This document shows, one piece after another, positions 5,471-30,273 of a DNA stretch of 30,461 nt (the first letter of the stretch is position 1; each line of letters opens with the position of its first letter). Location of the stretch: the NCBI GenBank assembly GCA_964634695.1, contig CAZWJX010000007.1:1-30461 (forward strand). The letters run 5' to 3'. This DNA is from an uncultured Syntrophobacterales bacterium. Lineage in GTDB: Bacteria > Desulfobacterota > Syntrophobacteria > Syntrophobacterales > Thermodesulforhabdaceae. The notes beneath the pieces were generated by a model. It saw only the letters and a list, made by a program, of their open reading frames with translations, was not told the origin of the DNA and made no database searches. Position numbers and translations under genes: made by a program.

Positions 5471-6442
5471 TTACCCCAGAGATTGCTTCGTCGCTTCGCT
5501 CCTCGCAATGAAATTTATAACGATTTCTCTGGTCTCTTCGGCCGATTTGAATCTGGTCAGCCGCCACAGTTTCTCGCAATCATCAAAGTTAAGATTTCTG
5601 GTTAGAAGATAGGCTTTTGTTTCGTCCTCCAGATGCGGATAGAGGTTTTCCCGAGGCAGCATTTCAACTTTTTGTAAAAGCTTCACGTATATCAGACTTC
5701 TAGCTGCCAGCAGATCAATTTCAGGATTGTTTGCATTCGGGTGAAACATGAAAATCAGTGTTAGTATGTCGCCCGGGCCGAATATCTGCTTTGTTCCTAC
5801 ACGACACCTCGTTTGTTCTTGCAGAAGAAAACGCACTCTAAGACGTATTCGGGGATACACAAGTCGTCGGAGATAATGCTGTAATGTCCAGTGGATGTAT
5901 CCGGCTTCTATGTAAAGCCTGAGAGTGCGACGTGCTTCAACTGCTAGGGATCTGGCTCTCATCTGGTCACGAAGAGCTATTCGTCTTGCATCGGCTCTGG
6001 CAAAATTTTTAACCGATTTGACCACATCTTCAAAACTTCCGGATAGGGAAACTTTATAAAAGCTCAGCAAAGCGGCTGTGGCTGACTTCTCCGCATCATA
6101 GACAGAACGGGCAGGACCTTCCGGAGAAAGATCATTTATCGAACCACCAGCGGCAAACAGCTCATGGAGATTTCTTAAGTGCTCCATATAAGGATCAATC
6201 TGCAATACAGCCTTACCCTGAGAATAAATCCTGCGGTACAATTCACAGGATGCTCTAGCAAATTCTGGAAATTCGTATTCGGATGCTTCTACGTAATCTT
6301 CAATTGAAATATCACCTCTGAGCATTTTCTCAAACAATGGATCAGGCGGCTCTTCGAGAACAATTACGTCGTGGTTTGTCATTATCCTTTCGGCTTCAGG
6401 CAGAACTTCCGGTCTGTGAGAGGAAAAACCAATCGTAATCAT
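5471..6442 (-). CDS. Hypothetical protein (323 aa); last residues encoded by a palindromic repeat
   Basis: Long ORF with natural composition. The C-terminal IARSEATKQS is the translation of the repeat at 5479-5511. Confidence 0.75.
   Translation of the reverse strand: MITIGFSSHRPEVLPEAERIMTNHDVIVLEEPPDPLFEKMLRGDISIEDYVEASEYEFPEFARASCELYRRIYSQGKAVLQIDPYMEHLRNLHELFAAGGSINDLSPEGPARSVYDAEKSATAALLSFYKVSLSGSFEDVVKSVKNFARADARRIALRDQMRARSLAVEARRTLRLYIEAGYIHWTLQHYLRRLVYPRIRLRVRFLLQEQTRCRVGTKQIFGPGDILTLIFMFHPNANNPEIDLLAARSLIYVKLLQKVEMLPRENLYPHLEDETKAYLLTRNLNFDDCEKLWRLTRFKSAEETREIVINFIARSEATKQSLG
5479..5511 (-). repeat. Solitary REP-like palindromic unit (type A) inside the 3' end of a CDS
   Basis: GAGATTGCTTCGTCGCTTCGCTCCTCGCAATGA is the exact reverse complement of the unit at 7681-7713. 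Confidence 0.95.
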
Positions 6443-6594: not shown

Positions 6595-7590
6595 CTACCG
6601 TATTCCACCGGAGGTTGATGGCTTGTACTCTCTGATAAAAACGCTATGATATTCTAATGCCATCTGGAAAACGTTCCCATTTGCTGAGATCCTTACGGAA
6701 TGAAAAATTTCGTGGGGAACTCTCTGGACAAAAAGGTTAAAGCTGAAGACCTTTTTTGCTTCTGGATTTACAATCACTAGCTTACTGGACAGTTTGTTAT
6801 CATCGGCTAGGGTAACTGCTAGGTAAAGTCTGCCGTTATTGTCGTCATCAACGCAGTCAACAGAATCAATTTTGCCAGGAAGGTTTATCGGGAATTCTAA
6901 TTCCCATTCCGAGATACTGCCAACCTTTGAACGATATACAGTGGCATTCGTGTTTCCATAAATTCTTAGACTGATAAGCTGCAAACCATTGACGGAGATT
7001 CTTCCCGGGACAGAGATCCTTTCACCCGGTACAACTCCTTGATCTAACGAAGCTATACGGACGGATCTATCTCCCACATTCAGCCATAACCCTTTCCATC
7101 TACCCCTCGTTCGGGCATAGATTCCTGTTACATCTTCAGATGAAGGAACCAGCCTGCCTTCGACAGCAATCGACCTGATAATCTCTCCATGGTTACTAAT
7201 AATAATGACGTTTTTCTCGGTTAACAGAGCTATTTCCCCATGTGGCAATAATTCCAGATCCTTTGGTTGAATATCCCCTATTGGAATCGATCTTTGTCGC
7301 TTTCCGCCTGCAAAAACCTGGATTCTGGAATTAACTTGATCAAGGATGAAAAATTCTTGGTTATCCTCTGAAATAGCGAAACTCATGGGCCCTTCTGGAT
7401 TTGCCTCTGAAGGATTAGTTATTCCAACATCATTGGGTCCCGAACCGATTGGAACTCTGAGTATATCCAGCTGGCCGACCTGTTGAACAGGCAAAATTCT
7501 AATGTCGTCCGTATTCTGTGACATGGATTTGGCAACAGACAATTGCAAAACCATGCAGAAAAACACGGCTACCACAAGCCGGTTACACAT
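6595..7590 (-). CDS. Secreted NHL-repeat/beta-propeller-like protein; start probably ATG 7590 (alternatives 7596, 7620)
   Basis: Signal peptide MCNRLVVAVFFCMVLQLSVAKS; NHL-like blade GPMSFAISEDNQEFFILDQVNSRIQVF; beta-rich sequence; GAAGGG SD 6 nt before 7590. Confidence 0.65.
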   Translation of the reverse strand: MCNRLVVAVFFCMVLQLSVAKSMSQNTDDIRILPVQQVGQLDILRVPIGSGPNDVGITNPSEANPEGPMSFAISEDNQEFFILDQVNSRIQVFAGGKRQRSIPIGDIQPKDLELLPHGEIALLTEKNVIIISNHGEIIRSIAVEGRLVPSSEDVTGIYARTRGRWKGLWLNVGDRSVRIASLDQGVVPGERISVPGRISVNGLQLISLRIYGNTNATVYRSKVGSISEWELEFPINLPGKIDSVDCVDDDNNGRLYLAVTLADDNKLSSKLVIVNPEAKKVFSFNLFVQRVPHEIFHSVRISANGNVFQMALEYHSVFIREYKPSTSGGIR

Positions 7591-7643
7591 AGGCATCCCT
7601 TCAGGGCTGGGTTTAATCAACGCTAGGGCTTAAATAAACCAAA

Positions 7644-8938: not shown

Positions 8939-9878
8939 ATGGAAATTACAGAATTGCAGAAGAAAACTTCTCAGGCGATAGTAAATATTTTTGAAACTGG
9001 TACTCCTCATGGTCATTATGGAAAAGTAACTCTTATACCCGGTGATCCCGGACATCTCACTTATGGAAGATCGCAGACCACGCTGAGCAGTGGAAATCTT
9101 TACCTTCTTATTAAGGATTACTGCAGCAGAGAAGGAGCTGTCTTAAAAGATAAACTTTCAGCTTACCTTGACCGTCTTTCAGCTAGGGATACGTCTCTTG
9201 ACAATGACATGTCGTTTCGGCGCCTTCTCAATGAAGCGGGAGACGATCCGGTGATGCAGGAAACTCAGGATAAGTTTTTTGATCGCATTTACTGGAATCC
9301 GGCAGTAAGCATCGCAGAAAAAAATGGGCATGACGAAGGTTCTTAGTGTCTGTGTGGTCTATGACAGCAAAATCCATGGTTCATGGAAACTTGTTCGTGA
9401 TCTTACAGAGCAAAAAGTGGGAACTTTTACTCAAGAACTGGAAGACAAATGGATTACCTGCTACGTTGAAACTCGCCGAAACTGGCTGGCAAATCACCCA
9501 ATTAAAATTCTCAGGAAAACCGTTTATAGGATGGATGCTTTTATTCAACTTATAAAGGAAAACAACTGGGATCTAGATCTTCCTTTATGGGTTTGCGGAA
9601 TAAGGCTTGATGAAGCTACTATAACCGGGCATTTTCTCAGAGCTTCAGCAACAGTTACCGAAGTGAGACTTTTAATGTTGACGCTACCCTACCAGAAAGG
9701 CGAGGATGTTCGTGAAGTACAAAAGGCTTTGCAACGTCATGGCTACGATGTCGAAGCAGATGGAGTCTTCGGTCCAGAAACGGATCTCGCCGTGAAAAAC
9801 TTTCAAAAACGATATGGCCTTGTGGTCGATGGTATTGTTGGGCCTGCGACTCTTGCAAAACTTGGTATTGAAGATTAA
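8939..9878 (+). pseudogene. Chitosanase (GH46)/lysozyme-like hydrolase with C-terminal peptidoglycan-binding domain, split by a frameshift (ORFs 8939-9346 and 9324-9878)
   Basis: N-part AIVNIFETG...GDPGHLTYGRSQTT...MQETQDKFFDRIYW; C-part VVYDSKIHGSW...YRMDAF plus a PG_binding_1 domain (GEDVREVQKALQRHGY...DGVFGPETDLAVKNFQKRYGLVVDGIVGPATLAKL). Deleting one A from the A7 run at 9318-9324 gives one 312-aa ORF (...AEKMGMTKVLSVCVVYDS...). Confidence 0.8.
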
Positions 9879-13293: not shown

Positions 13294-13770
13294 ATGTACA
13301 GTCCGGGAGAGATTCTTAATCTCGCAATGATAATTGAAGAAAACGGTGAAGAATTCTATTACGAGCTTGCAGATCTTGCCAAGGATAGCTGTACAAGAGA
13401 GCTTCTGAAAAAGCTTGCAGAAGAGGAGAATAAACACAGACAACGGTTTCTGGAACTCAAAAGACACATTGACAGAATTTATAAACCGGATGCGCTGGAA
13501 AAGGTCTCCCGATTTCTAACTTCCGAAGCTTTTGGTGCGAGGCTATTTTCTCTGGACAGGGAAAAATTGAAAAGCATTGGAAGCTTCGAAGATGCCCTCC
13601 AGCTTGCTATAACACTCGAAGAGGATTCTATTATTTTTTACGAACTACTTAAATCTCTCTCCGACAGGGAAGAAACTCTAAAGGTTTTGGAGTTTATCAT
13701 CAAAGAAGAAAGGTCCCACGTAAATACCTTGAAAGAAATAGCCCTTTCGCTTGAAAAATCCTGTGCCTAG
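13294..13770 (+). CDS. Rubrerythrin/ferritin-like diiron protein (158 aa from ATG 13294)
   Basis: IEENGEEFY, LAEEENKH, LEEDSIIFY, IIKEERSH: duplicated ExxxxxxY/ExxH motifs; GGAG SD before 13294. Confidence 0.85.
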   Translation: MYSPGEILNLAMIIEENGEEFYYELADLAKDSCTRELLKKLAEEENKHRQRFLELKRHIDRIYKPDALEKVSRFLTSEAFGARLFSLDREKLKSIGSFEDALQLAITLEEDSIIFYELLKSLSDREETLKVLEFIIKEERSHVNTLKEIALSLEKSCA

Positions 13771-14353
13771 CCCGAGTTTGTCAAGGCATTTTGTAAAATT
13801 ATTGAAGTCATTGGACGTGGGGCCCCAGATTCTACACTAATGCGTCGTAAAGATTTCAGTGAACTCCCCAGTGAGAGATTGCCACGGCCACTTCGTGGCC
13901 TCGCAATGACGGTTTCGGTAGGGATTGCCGCGCGCCCTCCGGGCGCTCGCAATGACTCTTCTTCGTGTCATTGCGAGCGAAGCGAAGCAATCTCGTCAGT
14001 GTGTCATTGCGAGGAGCGAAGCGACGAAGCAATCTCTTATTGTTGTGCTCTGTGTCATTGCGAGCGAAGCGAATCAATCTCTCCTTGTTTTACCCTGCGT
14101 CATTGCGAGCCCGAACGAAGTGAGGGCGAAGCAATCCCTTTTTGTCCGTCTTTGGAAGATTGCCACGGCCACTTCGTGGCCTTGCAATGACGGTTTCGGT
14201 AGGGATTGCCACGCGCCCTCCGGGCGCTCGCAATGACTCTTCTTTGTGTCATTGCGAGCGAAGCGAATCAATCTCTCCTTGTTTTCCCCTGCGTCATTGC
14301 GAGCCCGAACGAAGTGAGGGCGAAGCAATCCCTTTGTTGTGGTAAGTTCGGCT
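13770..14353. mobile_element. MITE-like non-autonomous element carrying REP array 2, flanked by TA at a reconstructed CCTAGG site
   Basis: Left ~105 bp and right 25 bp are homologous to the ends of 27831-28136; TA at 13768-13769 and 14354-14355; excision restores overlapping TAG stops of both flanking genes. Confidence 0.6.
13875..14332. repeat. REP/BIME-like array 2 (10 units, internal tandem duplication)
   Basis: B 13875-13910, B 13921-13956, A 13967-13994, A 14003-14036, A 14054-14081, A 14099-14138, B 14156-14191, B 14202-14237, A 14248-14275, A 14293-14332. Confidence 0.95.
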
Positions 14354-14994
14354 TAGGTCACGGGGTTTTTCTCACGCCGCATGCTGAGAGCCTTTATAAC
14401 GGTCGGAAGAAAAGAAACTACAATGATTCCGACGATTACTAGCGAGAAATTCTTCTTGACAAAAGACAGATTCCCGAAGTGGTAACCTATCCATGTAAGC
14501 GACGATGTCCACAAAACACTGCCCAGAGCATTATAAAACATGAACTTACCATAGTTCATTCGACCAATACCGGCAACAAAAGGGACGAACGTCCTGAAAA
14601 TCGGAAGAAACCTTGCTATTACAACGGCCTTTGACCCGTGTTTTTCATAGAACGCGTGAGTCGTTTCAAGATGTTTTTTGTTGAAAAAAATAGACTTTTC
14701 TTTTGAAAATACTTTTGGACCAACATACCTTCCTATGTGGTAATTTACAACATTTCCCAAAACGGCGGCAATGCTCATGGTGCCGAAAGCTACCCACGGA
14801 TCGAGAAGTTCTCTAGCCGCAAGCGCACCTACGGCAAACAGCAGTGAATCCCCCGGCAAAAACGGAGTTACCACAAAGCCGGTTTCAGAAAAAATGATGA
14901 AAAACAGCACTACATATGTCCAGGAGCCGACAAACTCCAGTAGCCTTTCAAGATAAATATCAACGTGCAAAATAAAATCGACGAATTCAGACAC
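14353..14994 (-). CDS. dedA: DedA family membrane protein (213 aa from GTG 14994)
   Basis: IIFSETGFVVTPFLPGDSLLFAVGAL...ARFLPIFRTFVPFVAG...GYHFGN; GGGGGT SD 6 nt before GTG. Confidence 0.9.
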   Translation of the reverse strand: MSEFVDFILHVDIYLERLLEFVGSWTYVVLFFIIFSETGFVVTPFLPGDSLLFAVGALAARELLDPWVAFGTMSIAAVLGNVVNYHIGRYVGPKVFSKEKSIFFNKKHLETTHAFYEKHGSKAVVIARFLPIFRTFVPFVAGIGRMNYGKFMFYNALGSVLWTSSLTWIGYHFGNLSFVKKNFSLVIVGIIVVSFLPTVIKALSMRREKNPVT

Positions 14995-25758: not shown

Positions 25759-26099
25759 GAGATTGCCACGGCTACTTCGCAGCCTCGAAATGACACCAGC
25801 ATGCGTCATTGCGAGGAGCGAAGCGACGAAGCAATCTCTGAGATTGCCACGCGCCCTTCGGGCGCTCGCAATGACGTAACGCATGTGTCATTGCGAGGAG
25901 CGAAGCGACGAAGCAATCTCGCCGTTGCGAGGGCTTTTTCCTGTCATTGCGAGCGAAGCGAAGCAATCTCATAATTGCTTTTTTGTGAGATTGCCACGAC
26001 CACTTCGTGGTCTCGCAATGACGGATTCGGTAGAGATTGCCACGACCGCCTTACGGCGGCCTCGCAATGACGAAATAGGGAACGCAGCCTCGCAATGGC
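25759..26099. repeat. REP/BIME-like array 4 (7 units + 1 partial) between the divergent ABC operon and tRNA-Gly
   Basis: B 25759-25794, A 25805-25838, B 25840-25875, A 25887-25920, A 25943-25970, B 25987-26022, B 26033-26071, partial B 26084-26099. Confidence 0.95.
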
Positions 26100-26190
26100 T
26101 TTCCTTTACCCGTCTAGGTTCTACATGAAATACAATACACCTTGTTGCCATTCCACTAAATCCCTTCTTTCGAACAGGCTCTCAATCCTC

Positions 26191-27347: not shown

Positions 27348-27803
27348 ATGAAAAATAATCCCCTGAAAGAAGTTGAAATTTACACCGACGGAGCCTGTAG
27401 TGGAAATCCAGGGCCCGGCGGTTGGGCAGCAATAATAAAGCGTGAAAACGAAACAGAGGAAATCTGGGGCTTTGATCCCAAAACCACTAACAATCGCATG
27501 GAACTCATATCCGTCATAGAAGCGCTTAAGAAAATCAAAGAGGCCAGCAAGATTCGGATATATACTGATTCCCGCTACCTTAAGGAAGGCATCACTTCCT
27601 GGATAGAAAAATGGCAAAGAAATGGTTGGAAAACCTCTTCAGGAACGCCTGTAAAAAATAGGGACCTCTGGGAACTTCTTCTTAAGCTGGCCAGTCCTCA
27701 CCAGATTGAATGGCACTGGATTCCCGGACACAGCAATCATCCAGAAAATACAAGATGTGACGCACTTGCTCGCCAGGCCATAAAGAAATGCCAGAGTGCT
27801 TGA
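27348..27803 (+). CDS. rnhA: Ribonuclease HI
   Basis: IYTDGACSGNPGPGGW, TTNNRMEL, YTDSRY, WQRNGWKT, VKNRDLW, WIPGHS, NTRCDALA. Confidence 0.96.
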   Translation: MKNNPLKEVEIYTDGACSGNPGPGGWAAIIKRENETEEIWGFDPKTTNNRMELISVIEALKKIKEASKIRIYTDSRYLKEGITSWIEKWQRNGWKTSSGTPVKNRDLWELLLKLASPHQIEWHWIPGHSNHPENTRCDALARQAIKKCQSA

Positions 27804-27830
27804 AAGCCTATCAGGCTGACTTCGATACTA

Positions 27831-28136
27831 ACCCGAGTTTGTCAAAGCATTTTTAAGCTGTTGAAATCATTGGATGTTGGTCAAAGATTTATAGTGCCTC
27901 GCAAGGACTTTAGTGAGAGCTTTAGTAAAAGATTGCCACGGCTGCTTCGCAGCCTCGCAATGACGGTTAGTAACTGTCATTGCGAGCCGGAGCGTAGCGA
28001 AGGCGAAGCAATCTCGTCATTATAATAAAATGATGAGATTGCCACGCGCCCTTCGGGCGCTCGCAATGACGTAATGCATGTGTCATTGCTAGGAGCGAAG
28101 CGACGAAGCAACCTCTTTGTTGCAACAATCTCGGGT
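27831..28136. mobile_element. MITE-like element carrying REP array 5, with 12-bp terminal inverted repeats
   Basis: ACCCGAGTTTGT (27831-27842) / ACAATCTCGGGT (28125-28136), 11/12 inverted match; ends homologous to 13770-14353; flanks TA and CA; reconstructed site contains CTAG. Confidence 0.6.
27929..28115. repeat. REP/BIME-like array 5 (4 units)
   Basis: B 27929-27964, A 27976-28015, B 28035-28070, A 28082-28115. Confidence 0.95.
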
Positions 28137-28163
28137 CAGGGCACGGTGTGCCGTGCCCCTGCC
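28136..28163 (-). repeat. Second palindrome type, degenerate GTAG-like REP
   Basis: Minus strand GCAG-GGGCACGG-CACA-CCGTGCCC-TGA; perfect 8-bp stem 28139-28146/28151-28158. Confidence 0.5.
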
Positions 28164-28197: not shown

Positions 28198-30273
28198 TTA
28201 AGCCGTAGCGGCAATAGGTTCTACAGTTTCGTCCTCTACTTTCGACACTCTTATTGCACAAACCTTTAATTCAGGAATTTTAGCTATGGGATCAAGAGCT
28301 GTATTTGTTAGCCGATTTGCTGCCGCCTCGGCAAAATGAAATGGCATAAAGATAACTCCTCGCTTTATCGATTTTGTGACAAATGCCCGAGTTGTTATAG
28401 CACCCCGGCGGCTTTCGAGTTTCACCATATCGCCATCTCTAATTCCAAGATTTGCAGCATCTTCCGGATGAATTTCCATATAGGGCTCGTTAAGTTCCCT
28501 TACCAGATGGAAAGACCGGCGTGTCATCGTTCCCGTATGGTAGTGCACATAAACCCGTCCTGTGGTCAGCCAGAAAGGATACTCTTCGTCGGGCTCTTCA
28601 GCAGGCTCTTTGTATTCGACAGGATGAAACAGTCCCTTACCTCTGGCGAACTGTCCTCTATGAAGGATAGGAGTCCCTGGATGATCCGGTGTAGGACATG
28701 GCCAGATCAATCCACCGGGTTCTCTGTCGAGCCTCTCATAGGAAATTCCCGCATAGGATGGCGTAAGAGAGGCAAGCTCTCGGAATATTTCTTCGGCCGA
28801 GGCATAATTCATCTGGTATCCGAGCCTGACAGCCAGATCCTGAAATATTGCCCACTCTACACGACTTGAACCTACCGGTTCTATGGCTTTCCTGACGCGC
28901 TGAACACGGCGTTCTGAATTAGTGAAGGTGCCGTCTTTTTCGGCAAAAGACACGCCCGGAAGCACAACGTGAGCAAGCTCCGTAGTTTGAGTTGGGAAAA
29001 TATCGATTACTACAATCAGTTCCAGCTTCTTCAAGGCTTCTTCTACATGATGTGTATCGGGATCGCTTACCATAGGATTTTCGCCCATTATCACCAGTGC
29101 CTTAAGCTTTCCTTCCAGAGCAGCATTTGTCATTTCGACGATGGTAAGTCCAACTTCGGAAGAAAGGTTAACTCCCCACGCTTTTTCGAATTTTTCCTTA
29201 TTAGCCGGAACACTTACGACCTGATAGCCAGGATAAACATTCGGCAAGCCTCCAACATCACAGGCCCCCTGAACGTTGTTCTGCCCGCGAAGAGGATTAA
29301 CCCCTGTGGATGGCCTCCCAACGTGTCCGCAAAGCATAGCTAAATTTGCAAGACTCTTTACGTTGTCGACTCCCGTTGTGTGTTGAGTTATCCCCATGCA
29401 GTAAATAATCGAGCTGCTTTCGGACTTTGCATAGTATTCGGCAATCTTTACGATGTCATCTTCCGGAACTTCTGTTATTTTCGAAACCAGCGACGGTGGA
29501 TATTTTTCGATAACTTCAACCAGTGCCTCAAAGTTTTCCGTGCGCTCTTCAACGAATTCTCGATTGTACCACCCTTCTTTGTAAATGACATGCATTATAC
29601 CATTTATCAAGGCAACGTCCGTTCCCAGTCGATGCTGCACGTAAATGTCGGCAAAACTTCCCAGATGAATCTTTCTTGGATCTGCCACGATGAGCCTGGC
29701 GCCTTTTGCTTTCGCTGTGTAAATCCTGGTTGCAACAAGAGGATGTGCAACCGTAGTGTTGGATCCTATCACAAAAATGCACCTGGCGTCCTCAGTCTCG
29801 GGAAAAGAGTTTGTCATAGCTCCGCTTCCAAGAGATGCGGCAAGACCTGCCACGGTAGAAGAATGTCAGAGGCGGGCGCAATGGTCCACGTTGTTTGTGC
29901 CGATCACGGCACGAGCAAACTTCTGGGCTACATAATTGTCTTCATTGGTGCACTTTGCGCTAACGAAAAAGCCTACACTATCCGGCCCATAATTGCTCTT
30001 GATGCGAGCAAGCTCTTTTGCCACATAATCAAGAGCCTCATCCCACGAGACCGGTTCAAGCCCTCCATTCTTCCTGAGTAGCGGATCAGTAAGACGTGCC
30101 GGATGATGTATAAATTCGTGGACATTCCATCCCTTAATGCAAAGCTTGCCTTCATTTACAGGATTTGACTTAACCGGAATGGTTCTAACAACCTTCCCCC
30201 CCAGAACTTCTAACGCTACTCCACATCCGCAACCACAATATGTGCAAACAGTTGGCACAATACGATAATCCAT
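28198..30273 (-). CDS. fdhF: Selenocysteine-containing formate dehydrogenase alpha subunit (FdhF-type, Mo/W-bis-PGD), 691 aa; joins track ORFs 29866-30297 and 28198-29853
   Basis: CTYCGCGC...LCIKG [4Fe-4S] motif; NNVDHCARL-TGA(29868-29866)-HSSTVAGLAASLGSGAMTNS; PLRGQNNVQGACD; molybdopterin dinucleotide-binding C-terminus; AGGAGG SD before ATG 30273; no Tat signal. Confidence 0.93.
29837..29865 (-). promoter_or_regulatory. Bacterial SECIS element
   Basis: After UGA: CAUUCUUCUACC, then stem GUGGCA / loop GGUCU / UGCCGC. Spacing and the apical GCAGGUCU sequence resemble the E. coli fdhF SECIS. Confidence 0.85.

Follow-up and report, generated by a model that had tools for sequence, protein, structure and literature searches.

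The reading we favour, to which we give a probability of about 0.5, is that two loci in a contig from an uncultured bacterium represent diverged copies of a single non-autonomous composite insertion element that resembles the miniature transposable elements with inverted repeats known as MITEs, is defined by its ends and was moved by a TA-specific DDE transposase. The whole contig, 30,461 nt long, is called the window below; the nearest named relatives of the organism are Thermodesulforhabdaceae/Syntrophobacterales metagenome-assembled genomes (MAGs). Together with 7.3 kb from a near-identical MAG contig (L001; GCA_049968115.1) it makes up a genome sample of 37.8 kb. Each copy encloses an array of repetitive extragenic palindromic (REP) units between a left arm of about 100 nt, which we also call the leader, and a short right arm. 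Copy 1 stands between a rubrerythrin-family gene and a convergent dedA gene, copy 2 between the genes for RNase HI and a formate dehydrogenase alpha-like protein.

The boundaries of copy 1 are set by an empty site in a relative. A preliminary description of the window, made from the sequence alone, had noticed that removal of positions 13770-14353 plus one TA gives TGTGCCTAGGTCAC and keeps both stop codons, and it had predicted an empty site of this kind in related strains. The removal works as described, and the predicted site exists. A sister species encodes a rubrerythrin homologue (P0002, 77% identical at the amino acid level) on contigs from two samples (L010 and L011), and on both of them the gene lies directly before a convergent dedA gene, with no spacer and with stop codons that overlap by 4 nt (TGTGCCTAAGCC). 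The junction reads ...AAATCCTGTGCC-TA-AGCCGCCGGGTTC... (in a further reading of the empty site, ...AAATCCTGTGCC-TA-AGCCGCCGGGTTCTTTTCTCG...) and is colinear with the window on both sides. The 32 nt that follow the TA correspond codon for codon to the window from position 14356, the C-terminal end of the DedA protein being ...N P A A in the relative vs ...N P V T in the window. Positions 13770-14353 are therefore a base-precise insertion with a TA on each side. The pre-insertion site would have been CCTAGG, which places the insertion in a CTAG; in the sister species this site reads CCTAAG. All strains seen (L007, L008, L009 and L031-L033) carry the insertion, in flanking DNA that is 98.3-99.9% identical, and the right arm is identical in three other strains.

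The two copies share their arms. As the preliminary description had it, the left ends match at 21 of 23 positions, and the 14-mer CCCGAGTTTGTCAA occurs exactly at 13771 and 27832 and nowhere else in the window. Its further claim that the left sides stay alignable for about 100 bp also held: the left arms align over their full length, with 74 of 98 ungapped columns identical (75.5%; z 10.8 against shuffles), z is still 6.9 when the first 23 nt are left out, and the alignment includes long stretches that resemble no REP unit. The ungapped match of 17/25 reported for the right ends was reproduced, and it is weaker than it appears: its first 8 matches (CTTTGTTG) are a spacer that commonly follows REP units, in arrays 1 and 3 too, and the last 14 bases of the element match at only 7/14. 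Both elements are small and non-coding, as is typical of MITEs (584 bp for copy 1, 306 bp for copy 2); their sole open reading frames (ORFs) are read-throughs of REP units, and a coding role for the leader was rejected, as the frame that is open in leader 1 is closed in leader 2. Neither element has a match in Rfam. Between strains, leader 1 differs from its counterpart in L007 at 10 of 105 positions, at several of which L007 has the base of leader 2; the 3.5 kb upstream differ at 1.35%. Leader 1 is found in L007 and L009 with 3-10 substitutions, L009 being a mixture of both haplotypes.

REP units in this genome have the form GTCATTGCGAG, a variable GC-rich stem-loop and GGCAATCTC, and there are 42 of them in the 37.8 kb. 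The window contains 36 occurrences of the 11-nt core GTCATTGCGAG, where 0.56 would be expected. The window holds six arrays and one solo unit, and the L001 sequence contributes a seventh array. The units are short, imperfect palindromes, abundant and intergenic, as REP units are, and in the arrays they cluster in alternating orientation with the GGCAATCTC ends facing outward, in the manner of bacterial interspersed mosaic elements (BIMEs). Compared with the conserved GTAG or CGTC tetranucleotide described at one end of REPs (PMC3733652), GTC is preceded in the 42 units by C (19 units), T (19) or A (4). The solo unit, GATTGCTTCGTCGCTTCGCTCCTCGCAATGAA at 5481-5512, overlaps the 3' end of an ORF on the minus strand (5471-6442).

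These units were aboard, at least in part, when the copies had a common ancestor. In both copies the left arm joins the first unit without a gap and in the same register, and in both the distance from the last unit to the end of the element is 23 nt; the conserved registers indicate that at least the first and the last REP unit were already in place. The same two arms enclose ten units in one copy and four in the other, counts that a parse of the units confirmed. The difference in size arose largely in place, as a secondary effect of tandem duplication: within array 2, which holds a recent internal duplication, positions 13876-13994 repeat at 14157-14275 with 97% identity and positions 14048-14141 at 14242-14335 with 98%. 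The order of unit types differs between arrays 2 and 5. Arrays also change between strains, array 4 having one extra 53-nt unit in the window (25897-25949) relative to the 99.9%-identical contig L001; this difference is a clean unit-to-unit gain or loss. Of the earlier proposal that the shell ferries REP arrays, then, the carriage of the terminal units stands, and much of the difference in array size is to be put down to events after insertion.

The ends of the elements are inverted repeats. In our test a candidate right end was slid over the 60 nt after the last unit, in 41 registers, and scored against the left end. The best register in both copies lies exactly 23 nt after the last REP unit, and in copy 1 it coincides with the boundary set independently by the empty site. 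The ends of copy 2 agree at 7/7 positions at the tip, 9/10 and 14/20 (best of 41 registers, p about 0.004), and the right end of copy 1 agrees at 10/20 with its own left end (p 0.015) and at 12/20 with the left end of copy 2 (p 0.0015). The terminal inverted repeats (TIRs) expected of a MITE are thus present, imperfect and REP-like, about 15-20 nt long and with the consensus ACCCGAGTTTGTCAA. At their left ends the two copies deviate from the REP consensus in the same way (GAGTTTGTCAA) and have no GC-rich hairpin, which means that the left end had decayed before the copies separated; that the outer border was kept all the same favours recognition at the outer ends over recognition of a terminal REP hairpin.

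Copy 2 is also an insertion, since a relative (L037) keeps the convergent pair of RNase H and formate dehydrogenase genes with a 117-nt spacer that has neither leader nor REP. Both left flanks read CTA. After the RNase H gene, species B has 25 nt and then CTAG with a GC-rich hairpin, and the window has 27 nt and then CTA-element-CAG with a GC-rich hairpin; the comparison fits the same type of target and one later T-to-C change at copy 2. The left arm of copy 2 is identical in L001-L003. Further candidates for an empty site at this locus gave none: two contigs of species B (L029 and L034) share only a 26-nt hairpin and are not joinable, the neighbouring genes differ in L012, L013 and L036, and L158 is without the leader. 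The parts of both copies and their surroundings are listed in Table 1.

Table 1. Parts of the two composite copies and neighbouring features (positions in the window)
Feature	Position	Strand	Remarks
Rubrerythrin-family gene, left of copy 1	13294..13770	+	158 aa (P0001); Pfam PF02915; limits from P0001 and L007
Left TA, copy 1	13768..13769	.	part of the rubrerythrin stop codon (TA + element G); aligns with the single TA of the sister-species TGTGCC-TA-AGCC
Left arm (leader), copy 1	13770..13874	+	first ~20 nt are the left inverted repeat GCCCGAGTTTGTCAAGGCAT
REP array 2 (copy 1)	13877..14330	+	10 units, both orientations
Right arm, copy 1	14331..14353	+	23 nt; degenerate right inverted repeat at its end (reverse complement AGCCGAACTTACCACAACAA)
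Right TA, copy 1	14354..14355	.	part of the dedA stop codon, minus strand
DedA/VTT-domain gene, right of copy 1	14353..14994	-	213 aa, GTG start; Pfam PF09335
RNase HI gene, left of copy 2	27348..27803	+	Pfam PF00075
Left TA, copy 2	27829..27830	.	
Left arm, copy 2	27831..27928	+	left inverted repeat ACCCGAGTTTGTCAAAGCAT
REP array 5 (copy 2)	27931..28113	+	4 units
Right arm, copy 2	28114..28136	+	23 nt; right inverted repeat (reverse complement ACCCGAGATTGTTGCAACAA)
CA in place of the expected second TA, right of copy 2	28137..28138	.	
GC-rich hairpin just outside copy 2	28139..28160	.	GGGGCACGG-TGTG-CCGTGCCCC
Formate dehydrogenase alpha-like molybdopterin oxidoreductase gene, right of copy 2	28198..30273	-	Pfam PF00384, PF01568; limits from L001

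A likely explanation for these observations is as follows. The element would consist of imperfect terminal inverted repeats, a left arm of about 100 nt made up largely of decayed REP units, an intact REP array and the 23-nt right arm, and it would have been copied as a whole, its outer ends defining it, into the TA of CTAG sites where convergent genes have their 3' ends. The enzyme responsible would most likely be a DDE transposase, specific for TA and of the IS630/Tc1-mariner type, provided in trans. The link to IS630 made in the preliminary description is borne out by a 2-bp duplication and a CTAG target listed for IS630 (PMC2577343, Table 1, citing Tenzen and Ohtsubo 1991). The first and last REP unit, at least, would have been aboard during the movement, and after insertion the arrays would grow and shrink in place through recombination from unit to unit, which would account for ten units in one copy and four in the other. 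Read from either end the element opens with a purine, and TA followed by this base gives TAG or TAA on either strand; because TA plus a purine remains a stop codon, both genes stayed intact after an insertion into their overlapping stops. That the second TA is a duplication, that the enzyme was of the DDE class and that the copies arose by transposition and not by some other copying process are the parts we infer. Both insertions are old, being fixed in all strains seen and having arms that are 24% diverged, and the family is probably no longer active.

Several observations weigh against this reading. The inverted repeat of copy 1 is weak (10/20), and the flanks of copy 2 are TA/CA and not TA/TA; with two copies, a 2-bp TA duplication at copy 1, whose TA/TA flanks face a single TA in the sister-species empty site, is indistinguishable from an element that itself ends in TA. 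The spacer of L037 is too diverged to be aligned and to fix the copy 2 junction. Composite copies number only two in 37.8 kb that hold seven arrays, five of which are without this shell. A search for the leader in 185,579 species genomes, JGI metagenomes and IMG/VR returned nothing beyond chance-level matches, and no transposase or autonomous partner was found by Pfam among the genes of the window or L001. The earlier idea of a DDE-mobilised, non-autonomous shell thus keeps its inverted-repeat ends in a common register and goes without an enzyme or an autonomous partner in the 37.8 kb; the wider recurrence of the leader on which it was to be checked did not appear, there being two copies here and none in the three public DNA collections. 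To these points are added the REP-like nature of the termini and the similarity of the right flanks, which we take up with the alternatives that they favour.

The REP-like termini bear on an alternative in which a large BIME, or a large REP doublet forming a hairpin (REPIN), was moved by the REP system's own single-strand enzyme of the HUH/REP-associated tyrosine transposase (RAYT) type; the left CTA would then be the target, the right TA would be borne by the element and nothing would be duplicated. Each of the four termini opens with the four bases R-C/G-C-C, and the 14 nt next to them agree with the beginning of a REP unit, GAGATTGCCACGGC, at 9-11 of 14 positions (each p <= 0.003), in a register fixed for all of them; in the left arm of copy 1 bases 5-18 match it at 11/14. 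In leader 2 there is moreover a decayed REP unit, GCCTCGCAAGGAC, which agrees with the unit consensus at 12/13 (p<0.001). The arms are therefore largely decayed REP sequence and not the non-REP shell that they had been called, and what we describe as TIRs could be nothing but the ends of terminal REP units that face outward, such as every REPIN or BIME has. The alternation of the array units with their GGCAATCTC ends outward, the CTA in both left flanks and the ambiguity between a duplicated and an element-borne TA suit this alternative too. However, the hairpin of the left terminal unit was lost in the common ancestor and the same outer boundary was used nevertheless, which an enzyme dependent on that hairpin should not do. 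The other five arrays are without these termini, and no RAYT gene was seen among the genes in the roughly 38 kb of genome. To our knowledge, TA/CTAG flanks are not a described feature of REPIN insertion.

Flanks of the same REP family elsewhere also speak against movement by the REP enzyme. The family is present in at least 120 IMG/VR contigs (loci L038-L157) from many metagenomes, where 173 of 227 clusters among the matches listed are single units, and it is a very widespread REP type. Among the IMG/VR matches listed (120 contigs) CTAG is not enriched in the flanks (33 of 439), so the CTAG target is not a property of the REP family. Inverted-repeat shells around REP clusters show no general excess among these matches either, a match of at least 13/14 being found in 5 of 212 clusters vs 4 of 624 controls. 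We regard movement by the REP enzyme as the closest competitor and, on balance, as improbable.

Less probable again is that the element began as a plain MITE and that REP units entered its copies later, each copy on its own, so that the shell would attract REPs and not ferry them. The decayed REP-like sequence in the left arm could have seeded the growth of an array, the order of unit types differs between the two arrays, and REPs are described as hot spots of insertion and recombination (Tobes and Pareja 2006, as cited in PMC3733652). Two independent invasions would, however, have had to hit the same two points, given the gap-free left junction and the 23-nt right distance common to both copies.

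We consider it slightly less likely still that no transposase took part in the copying, which would have gone, for instance, by template switching or by ectopic recombination of one REP array with another and an illegitimate join at the outside; the TA flanks and the similarity of the ends would then be coincidental. There are only two copies, REP arrays recombine readily, and the similarity of the copies runs past the right boundary at 10 of 14 positions (14354-14367, TAGGTCACGGGGTT, vs 28137-28150, CAGGGCACGGTGTG), which a transposon model does not predict. Against this, comparison with the empty site shows both outer junctions of copy 1 to be base-precise, on the left the two copies begin at one and the same base beside CTA, and the ends are inverted repeats in the same register. 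The DNA beyond the right boundary of copy 1 is ancestral, being dedA coding sequence with codons conserved in the sister species, and hence these 14 nt were not carried along; their resemblance to the flank of copy 2, which is likewise ancestral, may be either chance or an extended target preference. That the two loci share no common element, the arrays having grown in place and the arms, which are partly REP-derived, having come to resemble each other by convergent decay of REP units, is very improbable: judged by the similarity of arms that are 75.5% identical over 98 nt (z 10.8), with long stretches unlike any REP and a 14-mer found exactly at these two places only, independent growth in place would be excluded.

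The favoured reading, transposition of a composite element by a TA-specific DDE enzyme, is thus left with an observed core: a discrete insertion, shared arms, inverted-repeat ends, TA flanks at copy 1 and arrays that change in place. Taken together, the element is real and old, a MITE-like composite that probably targets TA.

Two patterns were used to look for its ends in public data, and the few matches were rejected. The sequence CCCGAGTTTGTCAANNCATTT, that is, the exact end plus 7 further leader bases, has two matches in the 185,579 species genomes, in Terrimonas and Luteolibacter; these are chance matches without an inverted partner and without REPs. The pattern CCCGNGTTTNTCAAN{18,30}TCATTGGA has 15 matches in the JGI metagenomes, about the number expected by chance, none of them with REP cores or with more than the pattern itself, and it has no match in IMG/VR. 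Within the genome sample, an nhmmer profile of the leader found no third copy in the window or in the 7.3 kb of L001. To the right of array 6, L001 positions 7477-7491 (GGCATTTTGTAACAT) share 14 of 15 bases, in direct orientation, with bases 16-30 of leader 1 (p<0.0005 for the 155-nt flank), and may be the remnant of a third leader.

Could TA/CTAG-targeting, DDE-moved shells be a general, RAYT-independent vehicle for REP arrays in this lineage? We think this unlikely. There are hints in its favour: arrays 1, 4 and 6 have CTAG on or close to their outer edges (positions 7623, 7912, 25675, 26114 and 30350), homology to species B resumes at the CTAG of array 6, and arrays 4 and 7 have a second end module in common. 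This module, TTTCCTTTACCCGTCT, resembles no REP unit and borders array 4 on the outside at 26100-26115 of the window and, inverted, array 7 at L001 12193-12208 (16/16); it adjoins TAG in array 4 (CCCGTC|TAG) and CA in array 7. Arrays 3, 4 and 7 end in truncated half-units (GTCATTGCGAGGCCACGTTTTTCAC...), and the observations suggest that this genome may have more than one kind of array end. CTAG lies within about 110 nt of the array edge in 7-8 of 14 flanks, which is not significant given the higher density of CTAG between genes; that density is itself dominated by the array flanks, so the CTAGs at the edges serve as a hint only. With the nearby CTAGs taken as borders, arrays 1 and 4 have no inverted-repeat ends (6/15 and 3/15, by eye), and the left edge of array 6 resembles neither its own right flank (p 0.16) nor the leader (p 0.06) significantly.

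The statement that no description of such an arrangement existed was too strong. REP dimers that are regularly contained in long palindromes have been mentioned in passing for Anabaena variabilis (GTAG-15) and Halothiobacillus neapolitanus (CGTC-1) (Di Nocera et al. 2013, PMC3733652, section 7), where, as here, REPs lie between inverted flanks that are never found REP-free. Those are dimers, given without empty sites, target or mechanism; here we see arrays of 4-10 units, a base-precise insertion into the TA of CTAG and a different REP family with the tag YGTC. The general plan is that of BOX elements of Streptococcus pneumoniae and S. suis (boxA - boxB(n) - boxC), which are composite and MITE-like, with distinct end modules around tandem inner modules whose number varies between strains. 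In S. suis different pairs of end modules surround the same internal module, boxB (PMC3049150), much as the REP units here occur with the present shell, with another end module (arrays 4 and 7) or with none. The likeness is one of plan: there is no sequence relationship to BOX, and the inner modules here are hairpin REP units in both orientations, which are also abundant outside any shell and in many other organisms. A similarity of the BOX TIRs to ISSpn2 is reported, and the sections of PMC3049150 consulted contain no empty site like that of copy 1.

MITEs of the IS630/Tc1-mariner group with a TA duplication share with our element the small size, the lack of coding sequence, the terminal inverted repeats, the TA flanks and the position in CTAG, the target that IS630 prefers (PMC2577343, Table 1). 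Unlike them, it has no known partner insertion sequence with matching ends, its repeats are imperfect and REP-like, only two copies are seen and copy 2 is flanked by TA/CA. The BIMEs of E. coli and the REPINs moved by RAYT (TnpA-REP) are similar in having clusters of alternating hairpin REPs at the 3' ends of genes, with non-REP linkers and edge motifs, and in using outward-facing ends of REP units as borders (PMC3333891, PMC3116915, PMC2817692). They differ from the present case in that no RAYT gene was seen here (~38 kb) and the hairpin of the left terminal unit was lost before the copies diverged. We therefore have a local variant of known composite bacterial repeats and not a new class.

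Some features of the surrounding DNA deserve mention. The exact product of the dedA gene is on record in three other samples. The GC-rich hairpin beside copy 2 is probably the ancestral two-way terminator of the convergent genes, and a sister species has CTAG and then an analogous hairpin in the corresponding position behind RNase H. The formate dehydrogenase alpha-like gene has an in-frame TGA at 29866-29868 (minus strand; context NVDHCARL*HSSTVAGL), and the NCBI annotation of the MAG has a single product of 691 aa that spans it; this TGA probably encodes selenocysteine. Elsewhere in the window, Glyco_hydro_46 and peptidoglycan-binding domains are spread over two overlapping ORFs (8939-9346 and 9324-9878) that correspond to a single 312-aa gene in species B, possibly as the result of a frameshift or as a pseudogene. 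Species B is without the present REP family and has a repeated hairpin of its own, ATCGGAGGGACGCACTCTGTGCGTCC, that closes two or more different contigs and, as a variant, another one (contig ends of L029, L034 and L035).

How REPs spread is still poorly understood, the accepted route being mobilisation of REPINs by a single-copy RAYT. The REP core is absent from about 40 kb of three sister species, which makes the expansion of REPs specific to this lineage, and shells acting as a general vehicle would, if real, help to explain the rise from no REP in those ~40 kb to about one array per 5 kb. The reach of the present case is limited, as it concerns two old copies in one uncultured Desulfobacterota-like lineage and its general plan was already described. 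What is new is the verified empty site, the TA/CTAG junction, the arrays of 4-10 units and the evidence for a block that moved with its terminal unit already degenerate. If the favoured reading holds, the whole block of decayed units, intact units and arms was copied as a unit defined by its ends into the TA of CTAG, and REP arrays can hitch-hike on another mobile unit; with its ends, target and empty site known, the element offers a concrete and testable example.

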